Translations under genes and position numbers: made by a program | Notes under the pieces: model-generated | What the model was told of the DNA's origin: nothing | Seen by the model: the letters and a program-made list of their open reading frames with translations, nothing else | Databases searched by the model: none | Origin: Alphaproteobacteria bacterium | GTDB lineage: Bacteria; Pseudomonadota; Alphaproteobacteria; Bin95 | NCBI GenBank assembly: GCA_963665325.3 | Contig: CAXXWS020000003.1 | Coordinates: 1 to 64,000, forward strand | Reading direction: 5' to 3' | Length of the DNA: 64,000 nt | Part shown: positions 1,608 through 52,074 of the stretch, piece by piece | Layout: every line of letters begins with the position of its first letter | Position numbering within the stretch: the stretch's first letter is position 1

Positions 1608-2324
1608 CTATTCGTTCCACGACGCTGCGGTAAGCGGCAACTCATTCAGTTCAGCCCTGGCTTCTCGCCAGGTGGGGTAATGCTTGTTCATTAGCCCGAG
1701 GAACCGCTCGCTGTGCGTCGGATCCAAGAGGTGCAGCATCTCGTGGACCACCACGTATTCGAGCAGATCCTTGGGCTTTTTCACGAGCTCCGTATTGAGC
1801 CGTATGGTGCGGGCGCGGTGATTGCAGCTACCCCACTTCGTCTTCATTCGTTGCAGGAAGTAGCCGGACACCTCGACACCCAGCTTGGGCTCCCACCTTG
1901 GGATCAGTTCCCGAACGACCTCATGCAGAAGCGACTTGTGCCATTTGTGCATGACCGCTGCGCGTTTGACCTCGCCGCTGCCGGGACGCACTGTGAGCAT
2001 GATGGCGCGATGGCTTAGACGAATGGAGGGCTTCGCCTCTTCTTCCCTGACGGTCAAGAGGTAGCGCCGACCCCATAGGTAGTGGCTCTCGCGCTCGACG
2101 AATTGGCGCGCCGTCTCGCGCGCCTGTCCAAGCATCTTTATCCGCTCGTCCCGAATCCACCCGAGTCTGGAGATCGCGTACGCGCGGGCCACCGCACTAC
2201 GTGTCCCCTTCGGGGCGACGAGCGTCACACGCCCGCTCGGCGGATGCACCGACAGGTAGACGTGCTTGACGTTCTTGCGGGTGAGAGCAATGGCAATCTC
2301 GCCGAGCTGGATGGTCTCTTCCAT
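1608..2324 (-). CDS. M48/YgjP-like (DUF45) zinc metallopeptidase associated with type I R-M
   Basis: MKTKWGSC and YVVVHEMLHL (HExxH) motifs; overlaps the hsdR stop codon. Confidence 0.9.
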   Translation of the reverse strand: MEETIQLGEIAIALTRKNVKHVYLSVHPPSGRVTLVAPKGTRSAVARAYAISRLGWIRDERIKMLGQARETARQFVERESHYLWGRRYLLTVREEEAKPSIRLSHRAIMLTVRPGSGEVKRAAVMHKWHKSLLHEVVRELIPRWEPKLGVEVSGYFLQRMKTKWGSCNHRARTIRLNTELVKKPKDLLEYVVVHEMLHLLDPTHSERFLGLMNKHYPTWREARAELNELPLTAASWNE

Positions 2325-5300: not shown

Positions 5301-5443
5301 GCCGTTTCGACCGCGCGGTTGTCTTCTCGTTTGCTCCAGTCGCCAAGATAGCGGTAGCCGAGGTTGTCAGACCGCGCCAGATCGCTGAACAGGGCGACGA
5401 CGCGGTTCTGCGTCTCGCGCTCCGGCCGCAGCTGCTCAGGCAT
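2324..5443 (-). CDS. hsdR: Type I restriction endonuclease subunit R
   Basis: 1039 aa; [19 protein letters not shown] nuclease motif, HTQGSGKS Walker [29 protein letters not shown]. Confidence 0.97.
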
Positions 5444-6602
5444 GAGCCGTCTGTGGCTCGACGAGCCGTGTCTTACCGGTGAGCAGCTCTTGCATCATCG
5501 CCTGCTTCAGGTCGTATGTCTTGTCGCGCCGCGCTTCCAAGGCGGCAATTTCGGCATTCATGTCGCAGAGGACGGTGGTGATCGCCGCTTGCTCACCAAC
5601 CGGAGGTAGGGGCATCTCGATACCCGCTATATGTGCACGGTTAGTTGCATAGACTTTGGTTCCTGAGGCGAGGCGACGAAGCTGGGCCACGAACAGTGGA
5701 CAGAACTGAAGAAAGCCCTTGAAACCGTCGGCGAGCACTTCTTTGTCGAAACGTGCTGCGATTGTGTGCAACCCCGACACGACCTCCGTACTGCAAACTT
5801 CTTTCACCTCCACCGACTTACCAACTCCGGCGACATCCTCCGATGCATCGGCAAAGATCAAATCGCCGTCTTGCAGGCGATCAAGCGATGCCGCTTTTGT
5901 GTCAGGCAAGCACGGGAGCAAAGCGACGGAAAGATAAGTGTCATTGCAAGCATGGATATCGCCATAGTGGAGATATCTTACAGTACCTTCTGGGAGAAGC
6001 TCAGCGCGTGAGTTCACACCGTTTCGTAGAAATTCAACATGATCACCCAGCCGTTGAATAACCCACTCGCCATCGAATCCAGGGAGGCGCGTCCGGCCCG
6101 TCAGGAGCTGCTGCATAGCGGCCAACTTTAGGTCCCGTTTTTTGGCGATAACCCGACTCAACCGGTCTAAGAGCGCGTCCACATCGCTTAACGCCGCCGC
6201 AATGACATGTTGCTCGAAGGGATTGGTAGGCAGTGACACCGTTTCAACATGAAGATCATTGCGGTTTACTCCTGGCACTCCGCTTTTTCCGCTGAAAGAA
6301 GCGAAGTCAAACCTCTGCAGGAGGTAGTAAATGAAACCCGGGTCGTTACTATGGAAGTCTCGGACGTAGAGCGTCGTGTTCAGCGGCCAGAACGGCTCAG
6401 TGATTAGGAAGAGCTCTCCAATTGTGCCGTATCGGCCCGTGACGACTCCGGGAGGATCGACCATTGCCACGTCGTGGAAGTCGGTAACGCCAGCCGAGCT
6501 GATGATCGGTATCTCTCCGGTTTTCCGAGCGTGATGTGGGAGATCGTAGCCACGTTGGAACGTCACCACTTGGCCTAGGGGCAGCGTAGCCCATGCGCTC
6601 AT
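5436..6602 (-). CDS. hsdS: Type I R-M specificity subunit S
   Basis: Two different TRDs, each followed by a conserved helix (EQ..I…L…D…K…K.A.MQ.LLTG.TRL). The ATG at 6602 overlaps the hsdM stop (ATGA). Confidence 0.95.
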
Positions 6603-9076: not shown

Positions 9077-9279
9077 TACTGTCGTTGACCCCTCGAATTC
9101 AGGCCCGCATCGTCGGCGAGGTGATCGACGCCGACCGGCATTATCGCCCAAAGGGGCGGTCTCGGTGATAGACGAATGATGTCCGCGTGTTGCCCATAGC
9201 TCAAGTGGCGGGGTGGCAGCCGCAAACCGCGCCGGCCTTGTATCGAGCCGGCCAACGCTCAGACAGGCCGTGGTGGCTT

Positions 9280-9510
9280 GATTGGGCTCCCGACCACCAG
9301 CGGCGCGAACTCTACCGCCGTCTGCACCGCCGACAGAACAAGACGTCCAACCCGTGCCAGGCGACGCCAGCCCGTCATTTGCGTCTCATGGACGTCAGAT
9401 CTTCGCGCAAGGTCGCCCCCGCCGCAAGCGTCTCCGCTACGATCCGCGCCTTCGAGTCGGCCGACCAGACACGACGACCGCCCCGCGATGGCAGCACTTC
9501 AATGCCGGAC
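9280..9510 (-). pseudogene. IS66-family TnpA (orf1) remnant
   Basis: Minus strand reads IEVLPSRGGRRVWSADSKARIVAETLAAGAT…, then after a break WRRLARVGRLVLSAVQTAVEFAPLVV, typical of IS66 accessory HTH proteins. Confidence 0.65.
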
Positions 9511-9679
9511 GCTGGAGGCGAATCTCGGCTTGCGGTATCTCGGGGAGAGGACAAAGTGGGCTTTGGGGAATGCGGATTGCTACGAGGTCGGGAATGAGCG
9601 GACGGGCGGCGCTGACGGGGAAGAGGGAAATGGCGTGTCCGGAGGTCACGGCACCTCCCGGTAAGACGGGGATCGGCTA

Positions 9680-10054
9680 ATGCTACGCGAGGGCTTCAAA
9701 CACGGGTTCTCAGAAGATCAATGGTCCGCGGCGAAGGAAGAGGCACGGCAGGCCATGATCGCTGTTGCGCGGTCCAAGAGCGTGATCGCCTACTCAGACT
9801 TGGTTCGGAAGATCACGAGCTGCATTCTGGAGCCAAATGGGACTCATCTAGCTCACATGCTTGGCCAAATCTCGTCGGAAGAGGACGAAGACGGCCGGGG
9901 ATTGCTCACTGTCGTGGTAGTGCACAAGACGGGCGATTTGAAACCGGGAACCGGATTCTTCCAGCTGGCCCGGTCACGTGGACGGCAAATAGTGGATGAG
10001 GAGCAATTTTGGATCGAGGAATTGCGCAATGTCTACGACGCTTGGTCCACATAG
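9680..10054 (+). CDS. Small hypothetical protein, possibly winged-helix-like
   Basis: 124 aa with protein-like composition: IAYSDLV…LAHMLGQIS…GRGLLTVVVVHK…PGTGFF. Confidence 0.75.
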   Translation: MLREGFKHGFSEDQWSAAKEEARQAMIAVARSKSVIAYSDLVRKITSCILEPNGTHLAHMLGQISSEEDEDGRGLLTVVVVHKTGDLKPGTGFFQLARSRGRQIVDEEQFWIEELRNVYDAWST

Positions 10055-10456: not shown

Positions 10457-11854
10457 TTATGGCGGCCGCCTCCTCATCGACAGTTCGTGTTCGAACCGGC
10501 GGCCGGGCCACGCGACGGCATCGGCATGTTGAGGCAACGGAGCGGGATCGGGAGGTTCCTGGCGGAGGCTGAGAAGATCGCGGCCGAGCGGTCGGGGATC
10601 GGCGCAGTGGAAACGGGATTCGGCGCCATCGCCGCCCAGGAGGCGGCGGAGGGCCTGGCCCCGGCGCGCGCCCCGATCCGGGAGACCGCAAACCGGGAGC
10701 ACGGCCGATGCCGGCGCCGGCGGGGACCGTCGCGCGGCGGGTCCGTCCCGCCCCTGCAGGCGGGCGAGATGCGCGGCGGCGCCGCGCGACGCCAGGAGGC
10801 GCTCGCCGTAGCGGGTCGCCATGTCGGGGCTCTTCCAGCGCCCGGCCTGCTGGATCGCCGGCAGCTTCATATCGTGTGCGACCATGTCTTGCGCCGCGCC
10901 CACGCGGGTGCTGTGCCCGGAGAGGCGGTCGGCCAGGCCGGCCTCGATCCCGGCCTGCCTCGCCATGGTCTTGTAGATGCGCGGGATCTGGCTCGGGTCG
11001 AGCGCCTCGCCCAACCGCCCGCGGCAGAGCGAACGGAACAGCCGCCCGTCGGCAATGCCGCTCCACTCCAGCCACTCGGCCAGCAGCGCCATGCTGTCGG
11101 GCGCGACGTAGAGCACGGCGCCTTCGCCCTCGGCGTCGGTCTTGGAGTTGCGCACCAGCACGGTGCCCGCGCCGGTCGTCCCGTCGACCTCGAGGTCACA
11201 CACCCTGAGCGCGGCAAGTTCCGAGCGGCGAAGCATGGTGTCGTAGGCGACGGCCAGGAGGGCGCGGTTGCGGATGTCGATCGGGCGGTCTCCGGTTGCC
11301 TCGGCCAGTCTTTGCCTGAGCGGCCAGGTGAGGCCGGGCGCCTGCGCCTGGCGGCGTCCCCTGTCGCGGTGCGTGCGCTTCAGCGCGAGCTTGACCTCCG
11401 GGCTCCGCGGCGCCTCCGGGCTGCCGGCCGCCCGGTGTGCCATCGCGATGCTGGCGACGTAGCGGCGCGCCGTGGCCGGCGCGCGCGTCGCCGCCATCGG
11501 GTCCACGAAGGCGACGATCGTGTCGGGCGCGGCCGGCAGCGCCTCTCTCCCTTCTTCGGCGCACCATGCCCTGTAGATGCGCATATCGGCCTTCAGCGCG
11601 CGCCCGGTATTGGCGCTGAACGCGCCGGCGGCGGCCTCTATCCAGACATCGGGCAGTTCCCCGGCCGCGGCGCTGCGGTCCTCGCCGGCGGCCTCGGGGG
11701 GCGGCGCCGGGTGCGCGAGAGGCACCGGCGGGCAGTCGGAGCACCGGTCATGGGAAAGGACGGCATGCGGGGACTGCCGTGGGCGCCGGGCGTCGGTGGG
11801 CTGCACCCCCGGGGCTGCTGTCCATGGCAGGCGAAGACGAAACATTCCAGGCAA
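10457..11854 (-). CDS. Cre-like tyrosine recombinase (SAM-like N-domain plus catalytic domain); true start uncertain, probably near 11720-11750
   Basis: FSANTGRALKAD…Y..WC; RNRALLAVAYDTMLRRSEL (R), NSKTD (K), SGHSTRVG (HxxR), GRWKS (W), ATRY (Y). Confidence 0.85.
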   Translation of the reverse strand: MPGMFRLRLPWTAAPGVQPTDARRPRQSPHAVLSHDRCSDCPPVPLAHPAPPPEAAGEDRSAAAGELPDVWIEAAAGAFSANTGRALKADMRIYRAWCAEEGREALPAAPDTIVAFVDPMAATRAPATARRYVASIAMAHRAAGSPEAPRSPEVKLALKRTHRDRGRRQAQAPGLTWPLRQRLAEATGDRPIDIRNRALLAVAYDTMLRRSELAALRVCDLEVDGTTGAGTVLVRNSKTDAEGEGAVLYVAPDSMALLAEWLEWSGIADGRLFRSLCRGRLGEALDPSQIPRIYKTMARQAGIEAGLADRLSGHSTRVGAAQDMVAHDMKLPAIQQAGRWKSPDMATRYGERLLASRGAAAHLARLQGRDGPAARRSPPAPASAVLPVCGLPDRGARRGQALRRLLGGDGAESRFHCADPRPLGRDLLSLRQEPPDPAPLPQHADAVAWPGRRFEHELSMRRRPP

Positions 11855-13055
11855 CCGGCAGCCCGGCGTCCGGAAGCACTCCCATCACAACCGACCCAAA
11901 GGCTATAGCCTCAGCGATGATCGCCCCGACCCGCTCTGCGGCAGCTTCGACTTCGCGGTCACCGACATGGGCGTATCGCAGCGTCATGGTCGGCTGCGCA
12001 TGTCCAAGCATCCGGGCAACGGTCGGCAGCGGGACGCCCCGGGCCACTGCCTGGCTCGCTACCGTATGGCGCAAATCGTGCAGGCGCACATCCTGGATCC
12101 CCGCCTCCCGCCTTGCCCGGCGCCAGAAAGGGAGATTGTGGCAGAACGGCCTTGCCGGGCCCCGTGGCGAGGGAAACACGAAAGTGCTTCCCGTTCGCGG
12201 CTGGCGGGCGATGACGACCTGCGCCGCCTCGCTCAGCCATACCGCGCGCGGCCCCGTCTTGGCCGTGGCCAATCTGAGCATGTCGCCATCGACCTCCGAC
12301 CATCGAAGCGTCAGGATTTCGCTCTTCCGGCAGCCGGTCAGCAGAAGCAGGCGAATGATGTCGGCCTGCGGCCGGCGCGAGGGCCGTTCCTCCACAAGGC
12401 GGTCCAGGGTCCGGTGAAGCCGGCCGATCTCTTCTGCGGACAGGAACCGGGTCATCTTCCGGCGCGGGTTCGACCTGACGCCCGCGACCGGGTCGGTGCC
12501 GACATGGCCGGCGGCTTTCGCGGCGCTCATGATCTGGCGCAGCAGGGAGAGCGCCATGTTGGCCGCGCCCGGCGTCTTGCGGCTCACGGCGTCGAACCAG
12601 CGCTCGACCCGGGGCCTGCCGATACGGTCGAGGCGAAGCGTGCCGAAGGCCGGCAGAAGCCGACGCTGGACCATTTGTTCCACGCGCTCGCCCCAGCCGG
12701 CGCTGCAATGGCTCCGCCGCGCCGGCAGCCAGTCCTCCATTACGAAATCCCGGAAGAGGGGAACGGCAATCCGGTCGGCAGGGTCTCCGGCGCAAAGTGG
12801 ATGCGAGCCGTCCAGCAAGGCCCGGCATTCGATCCGGGCTTCCTCCACCGTCATCAGCGCGGCCGAACCGACGGTCGTCCGCATCGCCCTGCCGTTCACG
12901 GTCCCGTGCCACACGAAACTGCGATGCCCGGAAGGGCGAATCCGGACGCCAAGCCCGGCAACGCGGTTGTCCCTGACGATGTATTCGGTGCTGCCGGGAC
13001 GCAATCTCGCGACGCCTGCATCCGTCAGGCGTATCTTCCTTGCCTTGCCCGTCAT
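11748..13055 (-). CDS. Tyrosine integrase with N-terminal arm-binding (DUF4102-like) domain, pair 1 member B
   Basis: RD..VAGLGVRIRPSGHRSF; LLTGCRKSE, AKTG, HDLRH, LGH, LRYAH all intact; ATGA overlap with the upstream integrase. Confidence 0.93.
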   Translation of the reverse strand: MTGKARKIRLTDAGVARLRPGSTEYIVRDNRVAGLGVRIRPSGHRSFVWHGTVNGRAMRTTVGSAALMTVEEARIECRALLDGSHPLCAGDPADRIAVPLFRDFVMEDWLPARRSHCSAGWGERVEQMVQRRLLPAFGTLRLDRIGRPRVERWFDAVSRKTPGAANMALSLLRQIMSAAKAAGHVGTDPVAGVRSNPRRKMTRFLSAEEIGRLHRTLDRLVEERPSRRPQADIIRLLLLTGCRKSEILTLRWSEVDGDMLRLATAKTGPRAVWLSEAAQVVIARQPRTGSTFVFPSPRGPARPFCHNLPFWRRARREAGIQDVRLHDLRHTVASQAVARGVPLPTVARMLGHAQPTMTLRYAHVGDREVEAAAERVGAIIAEAIAFGSVVMGVLPDAGLPVAWNVSSSPAMDSSPGGAAHRRPAPTAVPACRPFP

Positions 13056-14179
13056 GACTGCGTCCCCGAGAGCAGCGGCGCCAGGGCCTCGACCGTCTCC
13101 CGGACCGTCGCGTCGGAAAGATGCGCGTATTTCAGCGTGGTCGCCGCATGGTCATGGCCCAGCAGCCGCCCCACCGTGCGGATCGTCTCGCCGCTCGACA
13201 GCGCCATGCTGGCGTAGCTGTGCCGCGTGTCATGAAGGCGCACGTCTTCAAGGCCCGCCTCGGCGCGCAGCTGCATCCAGAAGGCATCCAGCCAGCTCCA
13301 GGGCGCGCGACGGCCTTCGATGGGGAATACCCATCGCTGCGACCGCGGCAGCCCGTCGAGAACGTCCCGGGCCGCCTGGCAGAGCCAGACCGTGCGCGGC
13401 CCGGTCTTGCTGTCGCGAAGGAACAGGTGACCGTCGCGGTAGAAGCGCCATTCCAGCGTGACGATCTCCGACTTCCGGCAGCCGGTCAGCAGAAGCAGGC
13501 GCAGGGCCGCGACATGGAATGGGTATTCTCGCTCATGCCGGTCCAGAACCATGCCGAGGCGGCGGTATTCCTCCGGCGACAGGAAGCGCTCGGACCGCTT
13601 CTGCCGGAAGCGCTTTATGCCCTTGCAGGGGTTGCCGCCATCGGGACGATACCCCCAGGCTTCGGCCTGCTGCATGATGACCGACAGGACCGGCGCCGAA
13701 CGGTTCGCCGCCGCCGGGGTCGCATGGAGCGAGCGGAACCAGCGCTGCACCTCCTCCCGGTCGATCTCCGCGACAGGCCGGCCCGCGAAGAAGGGCAGGA
13801 TCTGGTTGTGGAGATAACCGCGGTTGACCTCAAGCGTGCGCGGCTTCCAGCGCCTGCCATAGCGGGAAAAGACTTCCTCGGCGACGGTCTCGAACAGCAC
13901 ATCGCCGGAAGCGACCGCTTCGATATCCTTGTCGTCGCGCAGCGCGGCCAGCATGGACCGGGAGCGGGCGCGCGCCTCGGCTTCGGTCATGACCGCCGCG
14001 TCGCCGACGATCTTCCAGACCCGATGGCCCCGGTGCTGGCTGTGGATGAAATACCGCTTTGCGCCCGAGGGCATGATCCGGACGCCGTATCCCTTCAGTT
14101 CCGCGTCCCGGACATTACGGACGGCCTTGCGGGGCCGGAGGGTATCGACCCGGCGCTGGGTGAGGCGAATGGCTGCCAT
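13052..14179 (-). CDS. Tyrosine integrase with arm-binding domain, pair 1 member A
   Basis: RDAELKGYGVRIMPSGAKRY; LLTGCRKSE, DSKTG, HDTRH, LLGH, LKYAH. Confidence 0.93.
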   Translation of the reverse strand: MAAIRLTQRRVDTLRPRKAVRNVRDAELKGYGVRIMPSGAKRYFIHSQHRGHRVWKIVGDAAVMTEAEARARSRSMLAALRDDKDIEAVASGDVLFETVAEEVFSRYGRRWKPRTLEVNRGYLHNQILPFFAGRPVAEIDREEVQRWFRSLHATPAAANRSAPVLSVIMQQAEAWGYRPDGGNPCKGIKRFRQKRSERFLSPEEYRRLGMVLDRHEREYPFHVAALRLLLLTGCRKSEIVTLEWRFYRDGHLFLRDSKTGPRTVWLCQAARDVLDGLPRSQRWVFPIEGRRAPWSWLDAFWMQLRAEAGLEDVRLHDTRHSYASMALSSGETIRTVGRLLGHDHAATTLKYAHLSDATVRETVEALAPLLSGTQS

Positions 14180-14575
14180 GACTGCGGCTCCCCGATCGGT
14201 TGCACGTGTGTGCAAAACCGGGTTCGATCTCGCGCCCGGTTGCACCGGAAACGGGAAAATTCCATAATCATGTCAGATAGTTAGCACCGAAGGTGCGGTA
14301 TCGCTTGTGCGCGTGCGCCCGCGTTTCGCGGCGGCGCGCGTAATGCGCGCCCAATTGCGCGCGAGCAGGCGCAGAGCGCACCTCGCCCGTTGGTTCGTTG
14401 GGGACTTTTCGCGCCGGCGCGAAGCGGGAGGCGAAGCGGCTTCCGGATGCCGTTTGCCTCCGTCTCATTCTCGCATAGATTCCCAGAGGTCAAGCCGCAT
14501 TCGGGAATTAATTCCAGATTAGCGCATCGACCGTTGCGACTGCCGGCACCGCTGACCGCGGGCACCGTCAACCCA

Positions 14576-15289
14576 CTACTGCTGCCGAAGATAGAGCGCG
14601 TCGCTGATTCGCTGAAGGATCGCTTCGTCAATCTGGACACCGTTGAAGGCGAAGCCCTGATAGTTGAAACCTTCAACCGTCTCAATTTGTCCCGTTTCGG
14701 GAGAAATTTCAAACTTCGGAGGGTTTGCATCGTAGAGCCGATGAAGATCCGCCCGCAGCAGAATGCCGTTCGTCGGGATTTCGGGGCCATCCTTCCACAC
14801 TGGTATAATATGTGCCGCTTCTAAGGCTTCCTCACATCTTTCCCCAGACAATGCGCACTTTCCATCTTTTCTCAACAATAACTTTCTGAATGCGGTTTGC
14901 CATCGTTTCGCCTTTGTTGTTCTAGCTCTTTGGCGTTTCTCTTTCTTCCAGCCCGGACCACACATTTCTTTACTACCTTCAGGTATCCAAATGGTTTTGC
15001 CCGCATTTGCACCTTCCTCCAAGAAGAGAATATGTGTGCCCCAAATAATACCTTTGCCGGCTAAGTGCGTATTCTTATCCTTATTGTTATAAGTTATGGA
15101 TATTTTTGTTTTTGTATCCTGCTTCTGGATTTCAACATCTACATAATAAGTTACCAGCTCCGAATTACTCCAAAATTGATGTGTTTCACTAAATTTTCTT
15201 GGGTTTTCTATGTCCAACTCAATTACTTCTCTACCACCCCAGCAATATTTTTTTTCCCACTCTGTATTATCAATGACGATGTAGGGCAT
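14576..15289 (-). CDS. HNH endonuclease (HNH_2-type C-domain) with an unrecognised N-terminal domain; AT-rich
   Basis: FRKLLL…CALSG…LEAAHIIP…NGILLRADLHRLYD. Confidence 0.88.
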   Translation of the reverse strand: MPYIVIDNTEWEKKYCWGGREVIELDIENPRKFSETHQFWSNSELVTYYVDVEIQKQDTKTKISITYNNKDKNTHLAGKGIIWGTHILFLEEGANAGKTIWIPEGSKEMCGPGWKKEKRQRARTTKAKRWQTAFRKLLLRKDGKCALSGERCEEALEAAHIIPVWKDGPEIPTNGILLRADLHRLYDANPPKFEISPETGQIETVEGFNYQGFAFNGVQIDEAILQRISDALYLRQQ

Positions 15290-15379
15290 TACTTTCTCCT
15301 GTTCGTGTCAAGTTCTTGGGAAATACATCCCATTCTCTTTAGGCGATAGGCAATAGCAGACCGAGCGCCATGCTTATAC

Positions 15380-16378
15380 TCATCCATGCCACCTCGCCAG
15401 CCCCTCGCACATCGCCACGAGCCTTCGCCGCAGGCGCGCGGGCTTCTCCACCGTGACGCTGTCGCCCCAGGTGATGAGGTGCCAGCACATTTCGTCGAGG
15501 CCACCGGCTTCGAAGCGGACCGTTGTCGTTCCATTCTTATTTCTATACACGGTCTGGTCTGGGTGGAAGAGGAAGGTTGCGGCGTCGGGCGCGGCGCGGG
15601 TGTCGAAGCGGAGTTGGACCTTGACCGGCTTCTCCTGGAAGGTGCCGAAGGAGCGCCGAGCGAAGGCTTGCAGGTCGAAATCCGGGTCGCGCTGGAAGTC
15701 GTCCAGCCCCGGCCTCGCCCCGCTCACATTCGCGAGGCGCCAGAGGCGCGGCTCGCCGCTCCAATCGGTCCGGGCCACCAGGAAGGCGCGGTTGCCGTAG
15801 AGCAGGCCGTAAGGCTCGACGGTCTGGCGACTTTGCAGCCCCGTTTGCCGCGAAAGATAGTCGAATTCGACCGTGCGGGAGGTCCGGATAGCGTCGCGCA
15901 GCAATGCAAGCAGGTCCGTATCGACCGGCTGCCTCGGGCCGGGCCGCATGGCGAGGCCCTCGGCCCGGAGCAGGGTTTCGAGGTCGGCCTCCAGTTGCTC
16001 CGGCGTCCGGGAGCGGTGGAGCGCTCGCAGCTTGTCCGCTACCGCTTCCAGTTTCGCGGCCCGTTCGGCGAGGCCCGACCGCTCAAGCGCCGCAGCGGCG
16101 GTGGAAAGCGCGCCCAATTCGTCCGCCGAAACGGAGACAAGGCCGCGCAGCCTGTCCGAACTGAGCCGCCAATGTCTCCGGCGGTCGCCGCTCTCCACCT
16201 CTTCCAGCGGACCGAACGCCTGTTCGACGGCGGCCCGCATCCGCTCGGCCGTTTTGCGGCTGACCGAGAACTCCTGCTCGATGTCGGTGAGCGTCATTCC
16301 CTCGCGCCGGCCCTGGAGGCGGACCGCCAATGCGATAATATCCGTCAGGCGTTCGTAACGTATGCCGTCGTCCGCCAT
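15380..16378 (-). CDS. HTH-WYL-WCX transcriptional regulator, DriD-like
   Basis: N-terminal EGMTLTDIEQEFSVSRKTAERMRAAVEQAF (wHTH, close to the DriD N-terminus), MRPGPR linker, VEPYGLLYGNRAFLVA (WYL), FLFHPDQ…EMCWHLITWGD (WCX). Confidence 0.92.
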   Translation of the reverse strand: MADDGIRYERLTDIIALAVRLQGRREGMTLTDIEQEFSVSRKTAERMRAAVEQAFGPLEEVESGDRRRHWRLSSDRLRGLVSVSADELGALSTAAAALERSGLAERAAKLEAVADKLRALHRSRTPEQLEADLETLLRAEGLAMRPGPRQPVDTDLLALLRDAIRTSRTVEFDYLSRQTGLQSRQTVEPYGLLYGNRAFLVARTDWSGEPRLWRLANVSGARPGLDDFQRDPDFDLQAFARRSFGTFQEKPVKVQLRFDTRAAPDAATFLFHPDQTVYRNKNGTTTVRFEAGGLDEMCWHLITWGDSVTVEKPARLRRRLVAMCEGLARWHG

Positions 16379-16444
16379 GCCGCCCCTCCCATGCCGGTTC
16401 CCCGCCGGGAGCACCATAGGCGGCGCTCCCGGCAGGGCCAAACC

Positions 16445-18508
16445 TCACGCCCGGAAGCCCACGACCTGCGGGCGCCCCGGCTTGGCGTCGCATTCCTTGC
16501 GCAGCATTTCGGCGAGCGCCCTGGGTTCGCCGAGCAGGTCCATGATTTCGGCCTTGCGGCGCACGACCGCGAAGTCGCCCGGCGCGAGCGCCGCGAGGTC
16601 GCGCAGGCAGGCGGGAGGCTCCAGCCCGAAATAGGCGCGGAACGCCGCGTCAGCCTGTTCGGGCGCCAGATAGTCCAGCGCGACCTTGAAGGTAAAGCGC
16701 CGCAGCGTCGCCGGGTCCAGATGGTCGCCGAAATTGGTCGTGCAGGCGAAGGGCAGCGGGTGGCTCTCCATCCAGGTCAGCATCTCGTTGACCTGGCTCA
16801 CCTCCCAGTTCCTTACCGCGAAGCGCCGGTCGGCAAGCAGCGAGTCGGCCTCGTCGAAGACCAGGAACGCGCCCGCATCGCGCGCCTCGGCGAAGGCGTC
16901 CACGATCTGCCGTTCCGTCCCCCCGAGCCACATGGAGAGCAGGTCGGAGGTCCGCTTCTGCAGCACTTCCAGGCCGAGCCGCTCGGCGAGGTGGCGGACA
17001 TATGCGCTTTTACCGGTCCCCGGCGGGCCCTCCAGGCAGAGCGAGAACCGCTGCCCGCCGGAGCCGGCCAGCCGGTCGGCTAGCGTGGCCGGATCGATGT
17101 CGGCGCGGATGAGCGCGGGGTCAAAGCGCTCGGGCGCGCCCTGCGGCGGCTTCTCGCAGCCCATCACGCGTGAGAGGCTGCGCACCCCGCGGCGCACCGT
17201 CTCGATATCGCCGCCGCTGAGCCGCGCGGCGGCCGTGGCGCCCGCCGCGACGCCGGGCGTGGCTTCGAACTCGCCGGCCAGCGCGCGCACCTCTTCCGGC
17301 GTCGCCCCGATGCCGTGGCGTTCGAGCTGCCGGGCCCAGACCCGCGCCCTGACCCGGCTCGTCGGCGGGCGCAGCTCGAACGCGAACATCATCCGCCGGA
17401 GAATGGCCGGGCTGACATGCCGGGCGTCGTTCATGGCCCAGAGGGTCGGCGCCGGTGCCCGCTCCAGCAGCCGGTGCATGAAGACCTTCGATGCGCCTTC
17501 CCCGGACTTCGGAGCGAACGGCCTTCCGAAGAAGGGAATCCTCGGCAAGCCGTCCGCGAGCAGGTCCTCCATCTCGTCGAAGAGAAGTAGCGAGTGCCGG
17601 TCCCGCGAGAGCAGGCGCTGGGCCAGGCGAAGCTCCTGCAGCCTCTCGCGGCGCGACGGCTCGCGGCCGTCCTCGTCCGATTCCCCCACGCTGAAGAGCG
17701 TGACGCCCAGGCGCTCGGCCACGGCCTTGCAGAACTCGGTCTTGCCGGTGCCGGGCGGCCCGTAAAGCAGGATGTTAACGCCCGGCGCCCCCTTGTCGAG
17801 AGCGCCTTTCAGCAGCGTCTCGGCATGGTCCCGGTCGCCGGCCACATGGTCGAAGTCCGACCAGTCGAGCTCGCTCCGGGGGGCGGCGTCGAACAGCAGG
17901 CGGTTGACGTCCGATTCGGCGTCGGCCGGAGCGTATGCGAGCCGGTTGAGCCGGTCGATAACCTTCAGGTCGCCGTCATTGTCGATGGTAACGAGTCCAG
18001 CCCTGACGAGCGGCGCATCGTTGCGGAGGCGCCGGCCGATCGCGCCGGCCGAAAGGCCCAGCATCAGGGACAGCGCACGTCCCTTGATGTTCAAATCGTG
18101 CCACTGGGAGGGATCGACGAAGACATCGTCGATCATCGATTCGAAAACCTGGTGCGTCTGGTAGCGCAGCAGGAGTTCCAGAATGGCGGTGTCCGTTCGC
18201 GAGAGGCCAGTGGTTTCCGCCAGGCGCAGGAGGCGCTGTCCAGTCCGGTCGCGCCTCCGCGGTCCGGCGGAGCGCTCGTCCTGCAACGCCTGCCGGAGAC
18301 TGCGAAACTGCTCTTTCGAGACTTTGTCGTAGTCGGGGGCCCAGCGGCGCGCACGCCGCCTGCGCCTTGGGCCCACGAGCGCAACGCGGTGTTCCTTGTC
18401 CGCCACCCATTCGGCAAGCGCCGCCGCCTCGCGGTCCCGGCGGCGAAGGCCGGTGGCGGCGTTGGCGAGGTAGCAGGCAAGCAGATGTCGTTCGTAAGCC
18501 GTCAGCAT
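16445..18508 (-). CDS. Tandem (double) AAA+ ATPase, 687 aa
   Basis: Two AAA modules: GPPGTGKT/LLFDEME/…RRM and GPPGTGKS/LVFDEADS/TTN/LRRF; helical N-terminal region. Confidence 0.92.
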   Translation of the reverse strand: MLTAYERHLLACYLANAATGLRRRDREAAALAEWVADKEHRVALVGPRRRRRARRWAPDYDKVSKEQFRSLRQALQDERSAGPRRRDRTGQRLLRLAETTGLSRTDTAILELLLRYQTHQVFESMIDDVFVDPSQWHDLNIKGRALSLMLGLSAGAIGRRLRNDAPLVRAGLVTIDNDGDLKVIDRLNRLAYAPADAESDVNRLLFDAAPRSELDWSDFDHVAGDRDHAETLLKGALDKGAPGVNILLYGPPGTGKTEFCKAVAERLGVTLFSVGESDEDGREPSRRERLQELRLAQRLLSRDRHSLLLFDEMEDLLADGLPRIPFFGRPFAPKSGEGASKVFMHRLLERAPAPTLWAMNDARHVSPAILRRMMFAFELRPPTSRVRARVWARQLERHGIGATPEEVRALAGEFEATPGVAAGATAAARLSGGDIETVRRGVRSLSRVMGCEKPPQGAPERFDPALIRADIDPATLADRLAGSGGQRFSLCLEGPPGTGKSAYVRHLAERLGLEVLQKRTSDLLSMWLGGTERQIVDAFAEARDAGAFLVFDEADSLLADRRFAVRNWEVSQVNEMLTWMESHPLPFACTTNFGDHLDPATLRRFTFKVALDYLAPEQADAAFRAYFGLEPPACLRDLAALAPGDFAVVRRKAEIMDLLGEPRALAEMLRKECDAKPGRPQVVGFRA

Positions 18509-18551
18509 GGCTCTCTCCGGATTGCGGTATCGGAGGTAGCCTAAGGGCCGG

Positions 18552-18572
18552 GTGCGTCAGATTTGGTCGTAT
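18552..18572. promoter_or_regulatory. Putative WYL (DriD-type) operator upstream of the AAA gene
   Basis: GTGCGTC-N7-GTCGTAT imperfect palindrome, just upstream of a minus-strand TAGGCT -10-like hexamer. Confidence 0.65.
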
Positions 18573-18662
18573 CCGGGAAGCGCGTCCCGAATTTTTTCTT
18601 GGCCGCGTCGGCGGTTCGGACGGCGGCAGGCCGACTTCCGGCTTCCGGGCAACCCCGTATCG

Positions 18663-19205
18663 TCAGGGCGCGAGCGGGTTGGGCCAGGCATCGGAACGGG
18701 AGGCGTCGTCACCGTCGCGCAGCTGCCGGCGTAGCTCCATCCAGAGCCGGCCGAGCCTGTTCGTGCCGACCAGGCAGTCGCCGCAGGGCCGCGCGCCCCA
18801 GAAGGTGTCCCGTGTCGAGAATTCGACAATGGGCCGGTTGCCGGTTCTGGCGAGTTCGGCGTCGACGAGCGACCGGTTGGCTTCGCGCTTCACGCGCAGC
18901 ACCCATCGCATGGCGTCGACGCGGCGCGCTGTCCAGTCCGGGTCGATCGGATGGCCCCGGTCGCGGCCGAGGCAGGCGGCCTCGCGCGCCGAAGGAGCAT
19001 TCGCGATAAGTCGCTGGACTGCGGAATTCCGGCTGAATTTGGCGGCCTGGTAGAGGTGCTCAGAGGTTGGCCAGACGCAGCCGGCGGCGGCAATCGGGCT
19101 CGGCAACGGACAGAAATTGCTGAAGATGCCCCACTCGGCTCGAGAGAAACGGAAGCTGCAGGCCGTGTTGGCGCGGTAGGTCCGCATCCGGTCCGCCGGG
19201 TTCAT
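18663..19205 (-). CDS. NADAR family (YbiA/DUF1768) protein
   Basis: FSNF, WPTSEHLYQAAKF, A..LGR, W…RVDAM..VLRVK, IVEFS.RDTFWG, GTNRLGRLWMELR. Confidence 0.92.
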   Translation of the reverse strand: MNPADRMRTYRANTACSFRFSRAEWGIFSNFCPLPSPIAAAGCVWPTSEHLYQAAKFSRNSAVQRLIANAPSAREAACLGRDRGHPIDPDWTARRVDAMRWVLRVKREANRSLVDAELARTGNRPIVEFSTRDTFWGARPCGDCLVGTNRLGRLWMELRRQLRDGDDASRSDAWPNPLAP

Positions 19206-19251
19206 GGTGCCTCTCTCCGGATGGCGATGCTGGAGAGAGGCTAGGGCCCGG

Positions 19252-19272
19252 ATGCGTCATACCCGGTCGTGT
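19252..19272. promoter_or_regulatory. Putative WYL (DriD-type) operator upstream of the NADAR gene
   Basis: ATGCGTC-N7-GTCGTGT at the same position relative to a TAGCCT -10-like hexamer as the box at 18552. Confidence 0.65.
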
Positions 19273-19318
19273 CTGCGCAATATGTTTCGGGCTGCGTGCG
19301 GTGCGTTTCGCAGCCGCC

Positions 19319-20368
19319 CTACCGGTATCTCGCTTCCTGGTCGCTCTCCTCGGCCGGGCGGGCTATGGCATCGATGATCTGCTTCAGGCTTATGCTGCCG
19401 ACCGTCTTGCCGTCGCCGTCCACGACATTGGCCCGGTCGGCCTCAGCGGCGCCCACGACCTGCAAGGCTTCGTCCAGGACGAGATCGTGCGCCACGCTCG
19501 GGCCCTCGACCCCTTCGCCGGGCGTCATGACCGACCTCGCCTCGATGACCCGGCCCCGGTTGATGTCCTTCACGAAGTCGAAAATGTAGTCGTCGGCCGG
19601 ATGCAGGATGATGTCCTGCGGATTGCCCTGCTGGATCAGGGCGCCGTCGCGCAGGATCGCGATGCTGTCTCCCAGGCGAAGCGCCTCGTCGAGATCGTGG
19701 GTGATGAACACGATGGTCTTGTGCAGCTCCTCCTGCAGTCCGAGCAGAACCTGCTGCATGTCGGTGCGGATCAATGGATCGAGCGCCGAGAACGGTTCGT
19801 CCATCAACAGGATTTCCGCGTCGGTGGCCAGCGCCCGCGCCAGGCCGACCCGCTGCTGCATGCCTCCGGAAAGCTGCGATGGGTAGTGGTCCTCGAATCC
19901 GGACAGGCCGACGCGGTCCAACCATTTCCGGCTTTGCTCTTTGGCCTGCCGGATGGGCATTCCCTGGACCGCCAGGCCGTAGGCGGCGTTCTCGGCCACC
20001 GTCTTGTGCACATGCAGTCCGAACTTCTGGAACACCATCGAAATGGTGTGGCGCCGGACTTCGATCAACTCCTCCCTGGTCATGGCGAGCACATCGCGCC
20101 CGTTGACCACGATCCGGCCCGACGTCGGCTCGATCAGCCGGTTGATGTGTCGGATCAGGGTGGACTTGCCGGAGCCCGACAAGCCCATGATGACCGAGAT
20201 TTCCCTGGCGGAAACGTCGATGTTGATGTCCTTCAGCCCGAGCACGTGATTGTGCTCTTCGAGCAGCTCCTGCTTGGACATGCCCTGCTGGACCGCAGCG
20301 AGCACGGATTGCGGGCGGGGACCGAAGATCTTGTACAGGTTTTCGATGCCGATCTTGATCTCAGCCAT
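19319..20368 (-). CDS. proV: Glycine betaine/proline (ProU-type) ABC transporter ATPase
   Basis: MGLSGSGKSTL, LSGGMQQRVGLARAL, LLMDEPFSALDPLIR, FITHDLDEA. Confidence 0.93.
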   Translation of the reverse strand: MAEIKIGIENLYKIFGPRPQSVLAAVQQGMSKQELLEEHNHVLGLKDINIDVSAREISVIMGLSGSGKSTLIRHINRLIEPTSGRIVVNGRDVLAMTREELIEVRRHTISMVFQKFGLHVHKTVAENAAYGLAVQGMPIRQAKEQSRKWLDRVGLSGFEDHYPSQLSGGMQQRVGLARALATDAEILLMDEPFSALDPLIRTDMQQVLLGLQEELHKTIVFITHDLDEALRLGDSIAILRDGALIQQGNPQDIILHPADDYIFDFVKDINRGRVIEARSVMTPGEGVEGPSVAHDLVLDEALQVVGAAEADRANVVDGDGKTVGSISLKQIIDAIARPAEESDQEARYR

Positions 20369-21251
20369 GATCGACTCCCCTGCGATGCCTTTGCAGGCGC
20401 TGGCCGAACCTTTGCGACACGCGGTCGAAGATGATCGCCAGCGCCACGATCGCAAGACCGTTCATCAGGCCGAGGGCCAGGTATTGGTTCGAAATCGACC
20501 GCAATACCGGCACCCCAAGGCCGGCGACGCCGATCATCGATGCGATCACCACCATGGACAGCGCCATCATGATGGTCTGGTTCACCCCGGCGAAGATGTT
20601 GGGCAGGGCGAGCGGTATCTGCACGCCGAACAGCTTCTGCCGGTAGTCAGCGCCGAAGGCGTCGGCGGCCTCCAGCGCTTCTTTCTCGACGAGCCGTATG
20701 CCGAGATTGGTCAGGCGCACGATCGGCGGAATCGCGTAGATGCACACCGCGATCAGGCCCGGCACCTTGCCGATGCCGAGCAGCATGACAACCGGTATGA
20801 GGTAAACGAATGCGGGAATCGTCTGCATGATGTCCAGCACCGGCGTAATCGCCGTCTGCATCCGGTCCGAGCGCGCCATCAGGATGCCGAGCGGGATGCC
20901 GACCGCGATGCAAAGCAGGGTCGCGACCGAGATGATGGCAAGCGTGGACATCGTGTCCTGCCACATGCCGAAATAGCCGATCGCGAAGAACGACAGCACG
21001 GAACCGGCGACGACCGCCTTGCTGCGCGAGCCGAGCCAGGCCAGCACGGCGATGACCAGGACGATCACGGGCCACGGCGTGGCGATCAGCAGCTTCTCGA
21101 ACCAGACGAGAAACCTGAGCAGGGGCTCGAAGAAATTCTCGAGCAGCTCGCCGAATTCGCGCGAAAAGTCGCGAAACCCTCCATCGATCGATTTCTTCAG
21201 ATCGCGAAGATCCTGGCGATCCATCGAGGGAAATTCTGTCAAAAAATCCAT
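20361..21251 (-). CDS. proW: ProU-type ABC transporter permease
   Basis: PVLDIMQTIPAFVYLIP, EAADAFGA (EAA loop), NQTIMMALSMVVIASMIG. Confidence 0.93.
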   Translation of the reverse strand: MDFLTEFPSMDRQDLRDLKKSIDGGFRDFSREFGELLENFFEPLLRFLVWFEKLLIATPWPVIVLVIAVLAWLGSRSKAVVAGSVLSFFAIGYFGMWQDTMSTLAIISVATLLCIAVGIPLGILMARSDRMQTAITPVLDIMQTIPAFVYLIPVVMLLGIGKVPGLIAVCIYAIPPIVRLTNLGIRLVEKEALEAADAFGADYRQKLFGVQIPLALPNIFAGVNQTIMMALSMVVIASMIGVAGLGVPVLRSISNQYLALGLMNGLAIVALAIIFDRVSQRFGQRLQRHRRGVDHG

Positions 21252-47069: not shown

Positions 47070-47089
47070 GCGCGGCGCGCGCGTTGACC

Positions 47090-48397: not shown

Positions 48398-48425
48398 GGG
48401 TCGTTTTCGACTCGCAAAACGACCC
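48398..48425. promoter_or_regulatory. Perfect 10-bp inverted repeat upstream of the rdfS-tra operon
   Basis: GGGTCGTTTT-N8-AAAACGACCC. Confidence 0.5.
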
Positions 48426-52073: not shown

Positions 52074-52074
52074 C

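Follow-up and report, generated by a model that had tools for sequence, protein, structure and literature searches.

The window analysed here is a 64,000-nucleotide stretch of contig CAXXWS020000003.1 from an alphaproteobacterium of the Bin95 lineage. Within it, four co-oriented ORFs lie on the minus strand: a 180-aa NADAR gene (18663..19205), a 687-aa tandem AAA+ ATPase gene (16445..18508), a 332-aa gene for a predicted DriD-like WYL activator (15380..16378), and a 237-aa HNH_2 endonuclease gene (14576..15289). ORF positions and Pfam domains agreed with the initial annotation, in which a four-gene, co-oriented array next to integrases and restriction–modification (R-M) genes had been described. 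Three tyrosine integrases stand in tandem at 10457–14245, the type I R-M genes are hsdR (2324–5443), hsdS (5436–6782), and hsdM (6599–9151), and a GmrSD_C protein is encoded at 174–1127. The integrases and R-M genes are missing at the nearest sister-species locus, and this block is therefore a separate insertion. No convincing candidate for a minus-strand terminator was seen between the four genes. PADLOC models were run on the locus and, as had been expected, no full system was matched; IetA models matched the second AAA domain only, and generic WYL and HNH models were matched too.

The longest ORF for the regulator runs from 15380 to 16441, with a TTG start at 16441 (353 aa). By hand reading, translation probably starts at the ATG at 16378, which is preceded 5 nt upstream by GGGAGGGG. 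Pfam WYL (3.7e-12) and WCX (1.8e-12) were both matched, and the architecture (wHTH, three-helix bundle, WYL, WCX) could be aligned nearly end to end with DriD of Caulobacter crescentus (PDB 8tp8, E 1.4e-52, residues 17–353 on chain residues 9–345), confirming the earlier description of the protein as DriD-like. PDB chains which we take to be PafBC were matched at only E 5e-4. The genome contains one DriD homologue. For DriD, ssDNA contacts in the WYL pocket have been assigned to Y168, S172, R178, Y192, K202, R204, and W206 (PMC9186387). A hand count on the 8tp8 alignment found four of these seven positions to be identical (Y195, R205, R232, and W234); Y192 is conservatively replaced by F220, and two positions are changed (S172 to Q199, K202 to E230). 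We infer from the sequence that ssDNA is the signal for the WYL protein and that the protein activates transcription.

The ATPase matched Pfam AAA in two stretches (1.6e-31). Walker A/B motifs, sensor-1 Asn, and Arg-finger pairs are intact in both D1 (Walker A K256, Walker B D311 E312) and D2 (K500, D552 E553), and K256, D311/E312, N360, R371/R372, K500, D552/E553, N592, and R603/R604 show no variation across 40 homologues. By hand reading, an aromatic pore loop (W527-x-G529) is found in D2 only; across the 40 homologues G529 is invariant and W527 nearly so. With an AF2 model (pLDDT 80.8), the best Foldseek matches were p97/Cdc48/Rix7/NVL (E ~1e-16, identity 15–20%). The protein is thus predicted to be a Cdc48/p97-like double-ring AAA+ unfoldase, sharing with the type II unfoldases Cdc48/p97/VAT, Rix7, and NVL two stacked classic-clade AAA domains and the aromatic D2 pore loop. 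It differs from the Cdc48 class in D1, which lacks an aromatic pore loop, and apparently in its N-domain. The N-domain of Cdc48 is a double-psi barrel, whereas that of the window protein is predicted to consist of bundled helices and a winged helix (residues ~85–199); a model of this domain (pLDDT 82.1) matched winged-helix structures at Z 5.2–7.5, the best being MarR/ArsR-like and other winged-helix proteins, and a barrel-type match was not among the matches listed. The best defence-model match of the ATPase was to IetA/IteA of IetAS (4.1e-24 in PADLOC, 5.1e-25 in NCBIfam). Membership of IetAS was rejected: the match covers only D2 residues 488–613, scores 88.4 against a cut-off of 510, and no IetS-like protease is encoded among the four genes.

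For the NADAR protein, matches to Pfam NADAR (PF08719, E 4e-22, 79.6 bits against a cut-off of 35.1) and TIGR02464 (76.3 bits, cut-off 73.7) were obtained. The initial annotation had linked this gene to DarT1–NADAR; the link was not supported by comparison with PDB chains, where YbiA (PDB 2b3w) was matched at E 1.5e-21 and 8bau at E 5.2e-5, marking the enzyme as YbiA-type and not DarG1-type. The gene is flanked by an ABC ATPase gene and the AAA gene, and no DarT-like gene is found among the genes adjoining it; PF14487 (DarT) has no match in the genome, but also none in 14 control genomes. NADAR-fold enzymes are found in conflict or damage contexts as the DarTG1 antitoxin, phage AdfN, and E. 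coli DS-32 (NADAR plus PRTase), of which DS-32B has been validated as an anti-phage NADAR (bioRxiv 10.1101/2025.01.08.631726). The window gene appears to differ from these in standing behind a DriD-type promoter instead of acting as a toxin partner. Its best NCBIfam match was an anti-phage NADAR model, DS32_2 (NF053876), and membership of DS-32 was rejected with 121.7 bits against a cut-off of 240 and no PRTase gene adjacent. According to PMC12945103, YbiA-type NADARs take G- and C-linked ADP-ribose off ssDNA in vitro, and guanine-linked ADP-ribose is removed by NADARs of all families.

The longest direct repeat within 14200–19400 pairs positions 18508–18573 with 19208–19273 (66 nt, 74% identity), both copies being placed alike relative to the start codons of NADAR and AAA. 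Homologous leaders of ~65 bp sharing a palindrome had been claimed for these two genes, and the claim stands. Each copy holds one 20-nt pseudo-palindromic box on the minus strand. Box 1, before NADAR (19253..19272, ACACGACCGGGTATGACGCA), agrees with the didA box at 14 of 20 positions by hand count and aligns with 45 other boxes; box 2, before AAA–WYL (18553..18572, ATACGACCAAATCTGACGCA), agrees at 15 of 20 and is a perfect match to the consensus TACGWCC-N5-TGRCGYA. The didA box used for comparison was taken from PMC9186387. Nine nucleotides past each box, a -10-like hexamer could be read on the same strand: TAGCCT past box 1 (19238..19243) and, from the sequence and the box alignment, TAGGCT past box 2 (18538..18543). 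As stated in PMC13004042, DriD promoters have a fixed distance from box to -10 and no -35 element, and the promoter oligonucleotides printed there show, by hand reading, the same layout with 9-nt spacing. In both leaders, the duplicated WYL-box promoters of the initial annotation hence contain boxes of the DriD type, spaced from a -10 hexamer as in DriD promoters. Since the regulator is DriD-like as well, the best reading is a putative WYL-activated promoter before both NADAR and AAA–WYL.

To follow these features across species, 80 related AAA loci from many phyla were compared, 75 of which were evaluable for the box. A box with at most one mismatch lay within 200 nt upstream of the AAA gene at 50 of the 75, leaving 25 with no good box. 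Exactly 9 nt past the box, xAxxxT was found in all 50 with no indel, and TAxxxT in 46; only 63 boxes of this kind occur in the 2.57 Mb of these loci on both strands. A WYL gene stands directly downstream of AAA at 47 of the 80 loci and elsewhere at 7; it was not found at 21, and 5 gave no room to tell. WYL is adjacent at 41 of the 50 boxed loci versus 4 of the 25 box-less loci. No other gene family was common to more than 11 of the 81 loci compared for shared families. The conserved unit is therefore box–AAA–WYL and not the four-gene set. No published description of the box–AAA–WYL module was found in the literature, and it is a new variant among WYL-controlled modules. Of 401 genomes sampled at random from the phylum, 41 contained an AAA homologue at E ≤ 1e-40. 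None of 20 loci inspected from this sample had a window-type WYL gene within ~6 kb, and the WYL query recovers four of five plasmid loci that carry annotated WYL genes; the AAA–WYL pairing therefore belongs to one clade and not to the whole AAA family.

From record titles, relatives 52–82% identical come from Alpha- and Gammaproteobacteria, Nitrospirales, Acidobacteriota, Latescibacterota, Gemmatimonadetes, and Binatia. Among 16 genomes of the same genus, 7 carry the pair, in up to three copies, and 9 lack it. AAA–WYL is probably a horizontally mobile two-gene operon. The window's regulator shares with Caulobacter DriD (promoters didA, bapE, and CCNA_03891/01149) both protein architecture and a 20-bp pseudo-palindromic box replacing the -35 element at a fixed -10 distance. 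Several differences set the two apart: the window activator lies within its own operon, so that autoactivation would be expected; its perfect boxes are local only, and the module moves across phyla; and it is partnered with a tandem AAA+ ATPase, which driD does not have. According to PMC13004042 and PMC12340889, C. crescentus DriD is not autoregulated and has no adjacent AAA gene, the neighbouring operon encoding an unknown protein and a TonB-dependent transporter.

That the locus belongs to an ordinary chromosomal DriD regulon, an SOS-independent damage response as in Caulobacter with the neighbouring genes as regulon members, is extremely improbable. The single DriD homologue in the genome and the close resemblance of the box to that of Caulobacter would suit such a regulon. 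A degenerate pattern built from box 1, box 2, and the didA box was scanned against the 5.58-Mb genome, however, and perfect matches were found exactly twice, at box 1 and box 2. With one mismatch allowed, 16 matches were obtained versus 13 for a reversed control pattern, and therefore no wider regulon is visible. Absence of the pair from most same-genus genomes despite its presence in distant phyla, together with an activator inside the operon that it drives, also argues against this reading.

The HNH_2 gene (PF13391, E 1e-9, 38.5 bits against 21, residues 145–188) carries, as read from its translation, EAAHIIP...NGILLRADLHRLYD, presumably the His/Asn/His catalytic core of HNH_2. It had been noted as AT-rich, and its GC content of 0.36–0.55 compared with 0.66–0.72 in WYL and AAA (250-nt bins) supports this. 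It has its own Shine–Dalgarno sequence and no DriD box. Full-length relatives were found only at locus L013 (75%) and in the sister genome G411 (50%), with the HNH core alone matching elsewhere; the window, G411, and L013 have the gene, and the other 79 loci lack it. Its position is the same in the sister species and L013, and even between window and sister the N-terminal half shows no conservation. At L013, copies of the WYL 3′-end stand on both sides of the gene, one of 125 nt before it (80%) and one of 300 nt after it (76%). Presence or absence at one site among close relatives, with flanking target sequence carried along, would mark a free-standing homing endonuclease, and the HNH protein may be considered a candidate for one. 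The HNH gene is apparently a later, foreign, and lineage-specific add-on that moves with the 3′-end of the WYL gene.

These data bear on a reading that follows from the initial annotation, in which NADAR, AAA, WYL, and HNH would make up one dedicated system working only as a set. The genes are close and co-oriented, two share a promoter type, the intergenic regions show no convincing minus-strand terminator, and HNH keeps its place in the sister species and at L013. Against this, NADAR was found at only 1 of the 80 related loci and HNH likewise at 1, and in the nearest sister species NADAR is reduced to its last 73 codons without its promoter, yet AAA (90% identical) and WYL (77%) are both intact there. 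The foreign composition of HNH, its missing box, and its unconserved N-terminal half add to these points. A single obligate system of this kind is very improbable, and a fixed four-gene defence system is not favoured. Recurrence elsewhere, whose absence the initial annotation would have counted against its proposal, fails for the exact set, but not for the AAA–WYL pair or for the class of ADP-ribose hydrolases.

ADP-ribosylglycohydrolases (ARH), unrelated in fold to NADAR, occur with the AAA gene at 5 of the 80 loci (Pfam ADP_ribosyl_GH, 2e-66): directly after AAA at L044, L056, L060, and L086, and after WYL at L054. Plasmids of cultured Leisingera and Fuscovulum strains have the layout box–AAA–WYL–box–ARH, and genome contig G727 has box–ARH–AAA; the second (ARH) boxes are each 9 nt from TAGTCT or TAACAT. 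De-ADP-ribosylating enzymes thus recur with this AAA family, three of them with their own DriD-type promoter. ADP-ribose hydrolases are present at a minority of the loci only.

A different reading would make the module an abortive defence system, anti-phage or anti-plasmid, in which invader ssDNA would induce a toxic unfoldase in an all-or-none manner through feedback and translational insulation. ADP-ribose hydrolases and nucleases would then be co-effectors or defence-island neighbours. Patchy presence within a genus, cross-phylum spread, and up to three copies per genome would fit such a role. So would the window copy adjoining type I R-M and GmrSD, the plasmid copies adjoining HEPN, ParDE, HipA, and SbcCD genes, the similarity of D2 to IetA (PADLOC 4e-24), the top NCBIfam match of NADAR, and the known existence of defence systems under WYL regulators. 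On the other side, PADLOC gave no full match, the 187 scanned flanking ORFs are mostly unrelated housekeeping genes with few conflict genes, and the R-M/integrase block is missing at the sister locus. Moreover, the defence WYL proteins BrxR and CapW are repressors (PMC13004042), whereas the promoter geometry here is of the activator type, and repair-type partners (AddAB-like enzymes, RtcB, and ADP-ribose hydrolases) suit damage reversal better than killing. We regard abortive defence, co-effectors included, as possible but somewhat unlikely.

Each leader also contains an inverted repeat on the minus strand. In the NADAR leader (19209..19241), the 5′ arm (19241–19232) covers the -10/discriminator and the 3′ arm (19218–19209) the Shine–Dalgarno sequence GGAGAGAGG; RNAfold gave a 10-bp stem with -19.7 kcal/mol and z -4.8. 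In the AAA leader (18509..18541), the 5′ arm is at 18541–18531 and the 3′ arm at 18519–18509, over the Shine–Dalgarno sequence (-14.5 kcal/mol, z -3.0). Across 47 leaders the fold z had a median of -2.2, being below -2 in 26 and no better than -2 in 21, and the 5′ arm begins at positions 2–5 of the -10 hexamer in 35. The repeat covaries: 70.4% of cells were paired versus 65.3 ± 1.1 in shuffled alignments, and the covariation score was 0.256 versus 0.176 (neither value reached in 500 shuffles, and all slid controls scoring lower on covariation), a comparison in which kinship alone can let related sequences exceed shuffles with no structure. RNAalifold on the raw leader alignment predicted zero pairs. 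In the fold-back inhibition of IS10/IS50 transposase translation, the 3′ arm covers the ribosome-binding site, and the 5′ arm is located at the transcription start of the element itself or upstream of it, so that only outside transcripts are silenced. The layout of the arms is alike here, with a predicted start site, but the window repeat guards a regulator–effector operon and not a transposase. The geometry suggests that transcription would start at the DriD promoter and that the inverted repeat would stop translation of read-through transcripts.

Taken as a whole, the locus is probably best explained as a mobile, DriD-driven unfoldase–activator operon to which NADAR and HNH were added in this lineage. 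Its promoter would carry a 19–20-bp pseudo-palindromic box instead of a -35 element, 9 nt before the -10 hexamer. ssDNA arising from damage, stalled replication, or incoming DNA would be bound by the WYL domain, and the WYL dimer on the box would recruit RNA polymerase, producing the unfoldase and further activator and hence positive feedback. Transcripts from the DriD promoter would be free of the 5′ arm and translated, whereas read-through from outside would fold back and stay untranslated; such insulation would suit a gene pair that settles in varied genomic surroundings. A putative protein substrate may be threaded through the D2 pore of the unfoldase. In this lineage, promoter and leader appear to have been copied before the YbiA-type NADAR, by which a nucleic-acid de-ADP-ribosylase would join the same regulon, and in other lineages unrelated ADP-ribosylglycohydrolases would have been recruited likewise. 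Partners gained in still other lineages include nucleases and AddAB-like enzymes. As for its role, the preferred view is of a self-amplifying response by which DNA lesions or obstacles, such as ADP-ribose adducts and bound proteins, would be cleared.

By analogy with PafBC, whose control is reportedly linked to the Pup-proteasome system, the unfoldase might instead strip or unfold the ssDNA-bound activator and so end the response. Tight linkage and predicted co-transcription of AAA and WYL would be in keeping with such a reset, and the winged-helix N-domain might provide a contact with DNA or with the regulator. However, AAA genes of the clade at L044, L056, L060, and L086 stand with an ADP-ribosylglycohydrolase and no DriD-like WYL gene nearby, the box has no adjacent WYL gene at 9 of 50 loci, and a pure feedback device leaves the spread of a self-standing pair unexplained, making this reading quite improbable. 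PafBC and the Pup-proteasome/Mpa of Actinobacteria do resemble the window module in tying a damage-response WYL activator to an AAA+ unfoldase machine; they differ from it in that the window ATPase is of the two-ring, Cdc48-like kind, and genes for a protease or for Pup were not seen. PMC13004042 describes PafBC as a heterodimer with a binding position at -26, which it occupies only jointly with RNA polymerase.

The preferred obstacle-clearing role can be extended, as an unlikely and tentative proposal, to a phylum-crossing DNA obstacle response. A DriD-type ssDNA sensor would induce a Cdc48-like segregase that strips proteins from damaged DNA, for example stalled machines, DNA-bound toxins, or adducts, alongside end-processing nucleases and an independently recruited NADAR or ARH. 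If true, this would be a bacterial equivalent of chromatin extraction by p97, and it would specifically answer DNA ADP-ribosylating toxins of phages, competitors, or toxin–antitoxin systems.

Domain matches identified four genes on the minus strand within 14576–19272, encoding a 180-aa NADAR protein (18663–19205), a 687-aa protein with two AAA domains (16445–18508), an HTH-WYL-WCX protein of 353 aa as longest ORF (15380–16441) and a 237-aa HNH_2 protein (14576–15289). The initial annotation had described four co-oriented genes with repeated palindromic leaders, and ORFs, domains and a 66-nt repeat at 74% identity confirmed this. The repeat is the longest direct repeat of the region; its copies end exactly at the NADAR and AAA start codons, and each opens with a 20-nt box. 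Because GGGAGGGG lies 5 nt upstream of the ATG at 16378 and homology to DriD, a WYL activator of Caulobacter, starts there, the WYL start codon was set at this position, giving a probable product of 332 aa. A terminator scan found no convincing minus-strand terminator between the four genes, and an Rfam search over 14200–19500 returned nothing near significance (best E 0.037, far under gathering). In four contig sets compared, out of five from one organism, identical pieces were present, including 14411–15485 and 17961–19400, and no alternative junction without NADAR or without HNH was seen.

On the coding strand, NADAR is preceded by an ABC-transporter ATPase gene (19319–20455). Downstream of HNH is a tandem trio of slightly overlapping tyrosine-integrase genes on the minus strand (13052–14245, 11748–13055, and 10457–11854), in a layout that we take to be that of "recombinase in trio" elements. 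A tRNA scan found no tRNA genes in the 64-kb window, so no tRNA attachment site accounts for the integrases. The stretch 174–9151, also downstream, is a defence cluster composed of a GmrSD_C/DUF5655 protein gene (174–1127) and a type I R-M system (hsdR, hsdS, hsdM) with a YgjP-like metallopeptidase gene (1608–9151); two small ORFs of no assigned family (9282–10054) lie beyond the type I R-M genes. GC content is 0.56–0.70 across most of 1–44000, lower than the 0.70–0.76 of 44000–64000; acquired DNA may make up most of the window's left part.

Known WYL regulators sense ssDNA for a chromosomal damage response (DriD, PafBC) or repress defence systems. The best solved relatives of the WYL protein are DriD constructs, namely 8tp8 (E 1.4e-52, nearly end to end) and 9pfq; apart from these, matches to solved structures are limited to chains at E 5e-4, presumably PafBC. 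Of seven ssDNA-contact residues of DriD named in PMC9186387, hand mapping found four identical, one changed from Tyr to Phe, and two otherwise changed. PMC9186387 also prints the 20-bp DriD site from the didA promoter; by hand count, it is matched at 15 of 20 positions by the AAA box and at 14 of 20 by the NADAR box, and its outer arms ACG.CC and TG.CGCA are retained in both. The regulator is DriD-like, as the initial annotation had rightly proposed, and it is the single DriD homologue of the genome. Two perfect matches to the box pattern occur in the genome, both at this locus; with one mismatch allowed, 16 matches were found versus 13 for the reversed control, and thus no genome-wide regulon is visible. 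The possibility that Caulobacter driD has the same ATPase as neighbour was rejected, the neighbouring operon encoding a TonB-dependent transporter and an unknown protein; PMC5172544, PMC3973325, and PMC3951458 yielded nothing further.

The AAA protein was then searched for in one genome per species, whereby at least 580 stretches matched, at least 526 were confirmed as relatives and the best 80 were kept. These 80 best of at least 526 are 52–82% identical, come almost all from metagenome-assembled genomes and, by record titles, belong to the Alpha- and Gammaproteobacteria, Nitrospirales, Acidobacteriota, Latescibacterota, Gemmatimonadetes, Binatia, and others. A protein database search gave 2393 relative clusters at E ≤ 1e-10 out of 8000 scored candidates, and relatives there are named just "AAA family ATPase." By tblastn, 47 of the 80 loci (best 80 of at least 526) have a DriD-like WYL gene as the immediate downstream neighbor of AAA; in the others, WYL was located elsewhere in the locus (7), room was insufficient to tell (5), or WYL was not found (21). 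NADAR and HNH were each detected by tblastn in 1 of these 80 (of at least 526), at 41% in locus L033 and 75% in locus L013, respectively. All-against-all clustering of 5505 ORFs from the best 80 of at least 526 revealed no further gene family shared by more than 11 of 81 loci, and Pfam tallies for 187 neighbor ORFs are mostly of unrelated housekeeping families.

Within the window's genus, the AAA gene occurs in 7 of 16 other genomes, with three copies in one. Three full AAA–WYL copies (L011, L013, and L014; 79–82% to the window) lie within ~340 kb on contig CBDBIS010000005.1 of genome G413. Of 401 genomes sampled evenly from the phylum, 41 have an AAA homologue at E ≤ 1e-40, and a window-type WYL within ~6 kb was found in none of 20 loci taken from those 41; the same WYL query recovers four of five plasmid loci having annotated WYL genes. 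The AAA–WYL pairing is a property of one clade. A phage origin was rejected: 22 phage records match partially, none covers 80%, and the best is 32% identical.

Boxes were sought with the consensus TACGWCC-N5-TGRCGYA, allowing at most one mismatch, within 200 nt upstream of AAA, with 75 loci evaluable among the best 80 of at least 526. A box was found in 50 of these 75, mostly 60–72 nt from the start codon, and WYL is adjacent in 41 of the 50 box-bearing loci versus 4 of the 25 boxless ones. The hexamer 9 nt past the box reads xAxxxT in 50 of 50 and TAxxxT in 46 of 50 (same best 80 of at least 526), and the stretch from box to hexamer is free of indels in an alignment of 47 leaders. According to PMC13004042, DriD promoters lack a −35 element, the DriD site occupying its place at a single fixed distance from the −10; in our own reading of the oligonucleotides printed there, CAAGGT (didA) and CAATCT (CCNA_03891) stand 9 nt past the box. 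This predicted DriD-type promoter is conserved across phyla. Further local duplications of the box-leader unit were noted at L017 (2472–2606), where two leaders stand in tandem before AAA, and at L020 (5415–5800), where a second box and leader precede a 99-codon AAA N-terminal fragment.

In the sister species (G411), the locus occupies the same position behind the ABC operon, with AAA 90% and WYL 77% identical. There, a promoter-less NADAR remnant is left, consisting of the last 73 codons (108–180; 93% identical); at ~18875–18921 of this locus (L126), promoter copy 1 and the 5′ part of NADAR, ~400 bp in the window, have given way to 46 bp. Its HNH is 50% identical, with a DNA match restricted to the 3′ part, and this syntenic locus lacks the integrases. 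The AAA promoter comes straight after the ABC gene in L010 and L012. Taken together with the recurrence counts, these loci show AAA–WYL to be the core; NADAR with its copied promoter entered in the window's lineage and already decays in the sister species, and the integrase and R-M block was inserted separately.

With NADAR and HNH each in 1 of the best 80 of at least 526 loci and NADAR a remnant in the sister species, the four-gene system envisaged in the initial annotation is not a conserved entity; of the recurrent neighborhood it had anticipated, the AAA–WYL pair stood (47 of the same 80), and the NADAR and HNH partners did not. What is conserved is a mobile operon joining a DriD-type promoter to the unfoldase and the activator, in which lesion-reversal and nuclease partners are optional. 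The initial annotation knew of no named system with this composition, and PADLOC yielded no description of the operon. In the literature on DriD and on WYL with DUF2779, ADP-ribosylglycohydrolase, and AAA+ operons, judged in part by title and abstract, no description of the AAA–WYL pair was found; supplementary regulon or candidate tables might list it. Across many phyla, a DriD-type activator, its box and an unusual −35-less promoter move together with one candidate effector gene, for which at least 526 relatives were confirmed. This compact cassette offers dozens of natural box and promoter variants to work on DriD. Caulobacter DriD is not autoregulated, whereas AAA–WYL would provide an autoactivating circuit for comparison.

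The HNH gene has a GC content of 0.36–0.55 versus 0.66–0.72 around it. Among the loci and genomes compared, full-length relatives were found only in L013 and the sister species; of 400 further genomes sampled from the class, 24 had HNH matches, all limited to the HNH core. At L013 (11994–13320), next to an intact AAA–WYL, a copy of the final 125 nt of a WYL gene stands before HNH and a second WYL 3′-end copy, of 300 nt, after it. This flanking on both sides may indicate that HNH moves with the WYL 3′-end target, as a homing-type gene would.

Across 40 homologues of the AAA+ ATPase, no change occurs in Walker A and B of both domains, in the sensor-1 Asn or in the Arg-finger pairs, and the W-x-G pore loop of the second domain is also kept. 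The AF2 model (pLDDT 80.8) matches p97, Cdc48, Rix7, NVL, and AFG2 in structure, and a sequence search gave the same families; a Cdc48-like unfoldase is thereby offered as candidate effector. The N-terminal 232 residues modeled singly (pLDDT 82.1) are helical with a winged helix at ~85–199 and give Z 5.2–7.5 to many MarR/ArsR-type and other winged-helix proteins; as these Z values are middling, the predicted N-domain is named by winged-helix fold class only. Complex prediction of the N-domain with two WYL copies (score 0.01, mark 0.32) gave no answer either way.

The leaders also contain an inverted repeat, whereby CTCTCC or a variant directly past the −10 is the complement of GGAGAG, the Shine-Dalgarno region that immediately precedes the ATG. 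The arms co-vary, CTGCCGCC occurring with GGAGGCAG, CCCTCC with GGAGGG, and CCCCCAT with ATGGGGGG. Pairs were counted on a manually specified structure in the unrefined alignment: 70.4% of cells are paired versus 65.3% in shuffles, and the covariation score is 0.256 versus 0.176 (each reached by 0 of 500 shuffles), although kinship among these related leaders can inflate pairing counts. Slid controls were all lower (best 53.8% paired), and RNAalifold on the raw MAFFT leader alignment predicted no pairs. Every leader was then folded singly (n = 47), with a median z of −2.2 and 26 of 47 below −2. In 35 of 47 leaders, the 5′ arm starts within the −10 hexamer, at positions 2–5, and a sigma-70 start ~7 nt past the hexamer would yield a native transcript without this arm. 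For this reason, the repeat is proposed to act on read-through transcripts only, which it would silence, native ones being spared. Fold-back control is known from IS10, to which such silencing might be likened; if the repeat works as proposed, a mobile operon would have a simple means to ignore outside transcription.

A fixed third "nuclease" gene after WYL was rejected as a rule, because downstream genes vary: among the best 80 of at least 526, DUF2779 is found in 9–10 loci, PDDEXK_4-like genes in 7–10, and AddAB-like genes in L028, L047, and L036, with housekeeping genes otherwise. An ADP-ribosylglycohydrolase (Pfam 2e-66) directly follows AAA in L044, L056, L060, and L086 and WYL in L054; these hydrolases occur in a minority of loci, with no matched background for comparison. 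On plasmids of cultured bacteria, AAA homologues of 34–47% identity have an annotated WYL beside them in five of six contexts, the exception being Croceicoccus. Those of Leisingera and Fuscovulum carry an ADP-ribosylglycohydrolase and an AddAB-like pair, that of Novosphingobium an AddAB-like pair and a PD-(D/E)XK nuclease, and those of Sphingobium and Diaphorobacter DUF2779. On the Croceicoccus plasmid (L091, 5360–8462), a WGR-protein gene directly precedes the AAA homologue, followed by a PD-(D/E)XK nuclease; WGR domains occur in poly(ADP-ribose) polymerases, and this gene may be another ADP-ribose hint.

The hydrolase genes of Leisingera and Fuscovulum are separated from WYL by a second DriD-type box, with TAGTCT or TAACAT at a distance of 9 nt, and genome G727 has the same promoter type before a hydrolase–AAA pair. 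With the window, whose NADAR is YbiA-type, these make at least four placements in which ADP-ribose hydrolases of two unrelated folds, recruited independently, stand under DriD-type promoters beside the ATPase. According to PMC12945103, YbiA-type NADARs act in vitro on ssDNA and RNA, taking off ADP-ribose linked to guanine and cytidine, and PMC13069673 reports an ARH-like antitoxin for a DarT system. Hydrolase recruitment would tie ssDNA sensing to the removal of ADP-ribose from nucleic acids, a link testable with existing assays, and the Leisingera thetidis and Fuscovulum blasticum plasmids provide cultured carriers.

Among 63 good boxes in the loci (best 80 of at least 526), 13 are not before the main AAA gene. 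At L075, boxes precede an RtcB RNA ligase gene and an Nmad2 gene with a conserved partner (1044–2255 and 6879–7562); at L040 (13469–15677), they precede Nmad2 with its partner and a 192-aa protein that consists solely of EF-Tu domains 2 and 3. This places genes related to RNA and translation in the same predicted regulon in some gammaproteobacterial genomes. At L039, a box stands before a second WYL gene, which is accompanied by a PDDEXK_4-like nuclease, and some other extra boxes precede genes of no assigned family.
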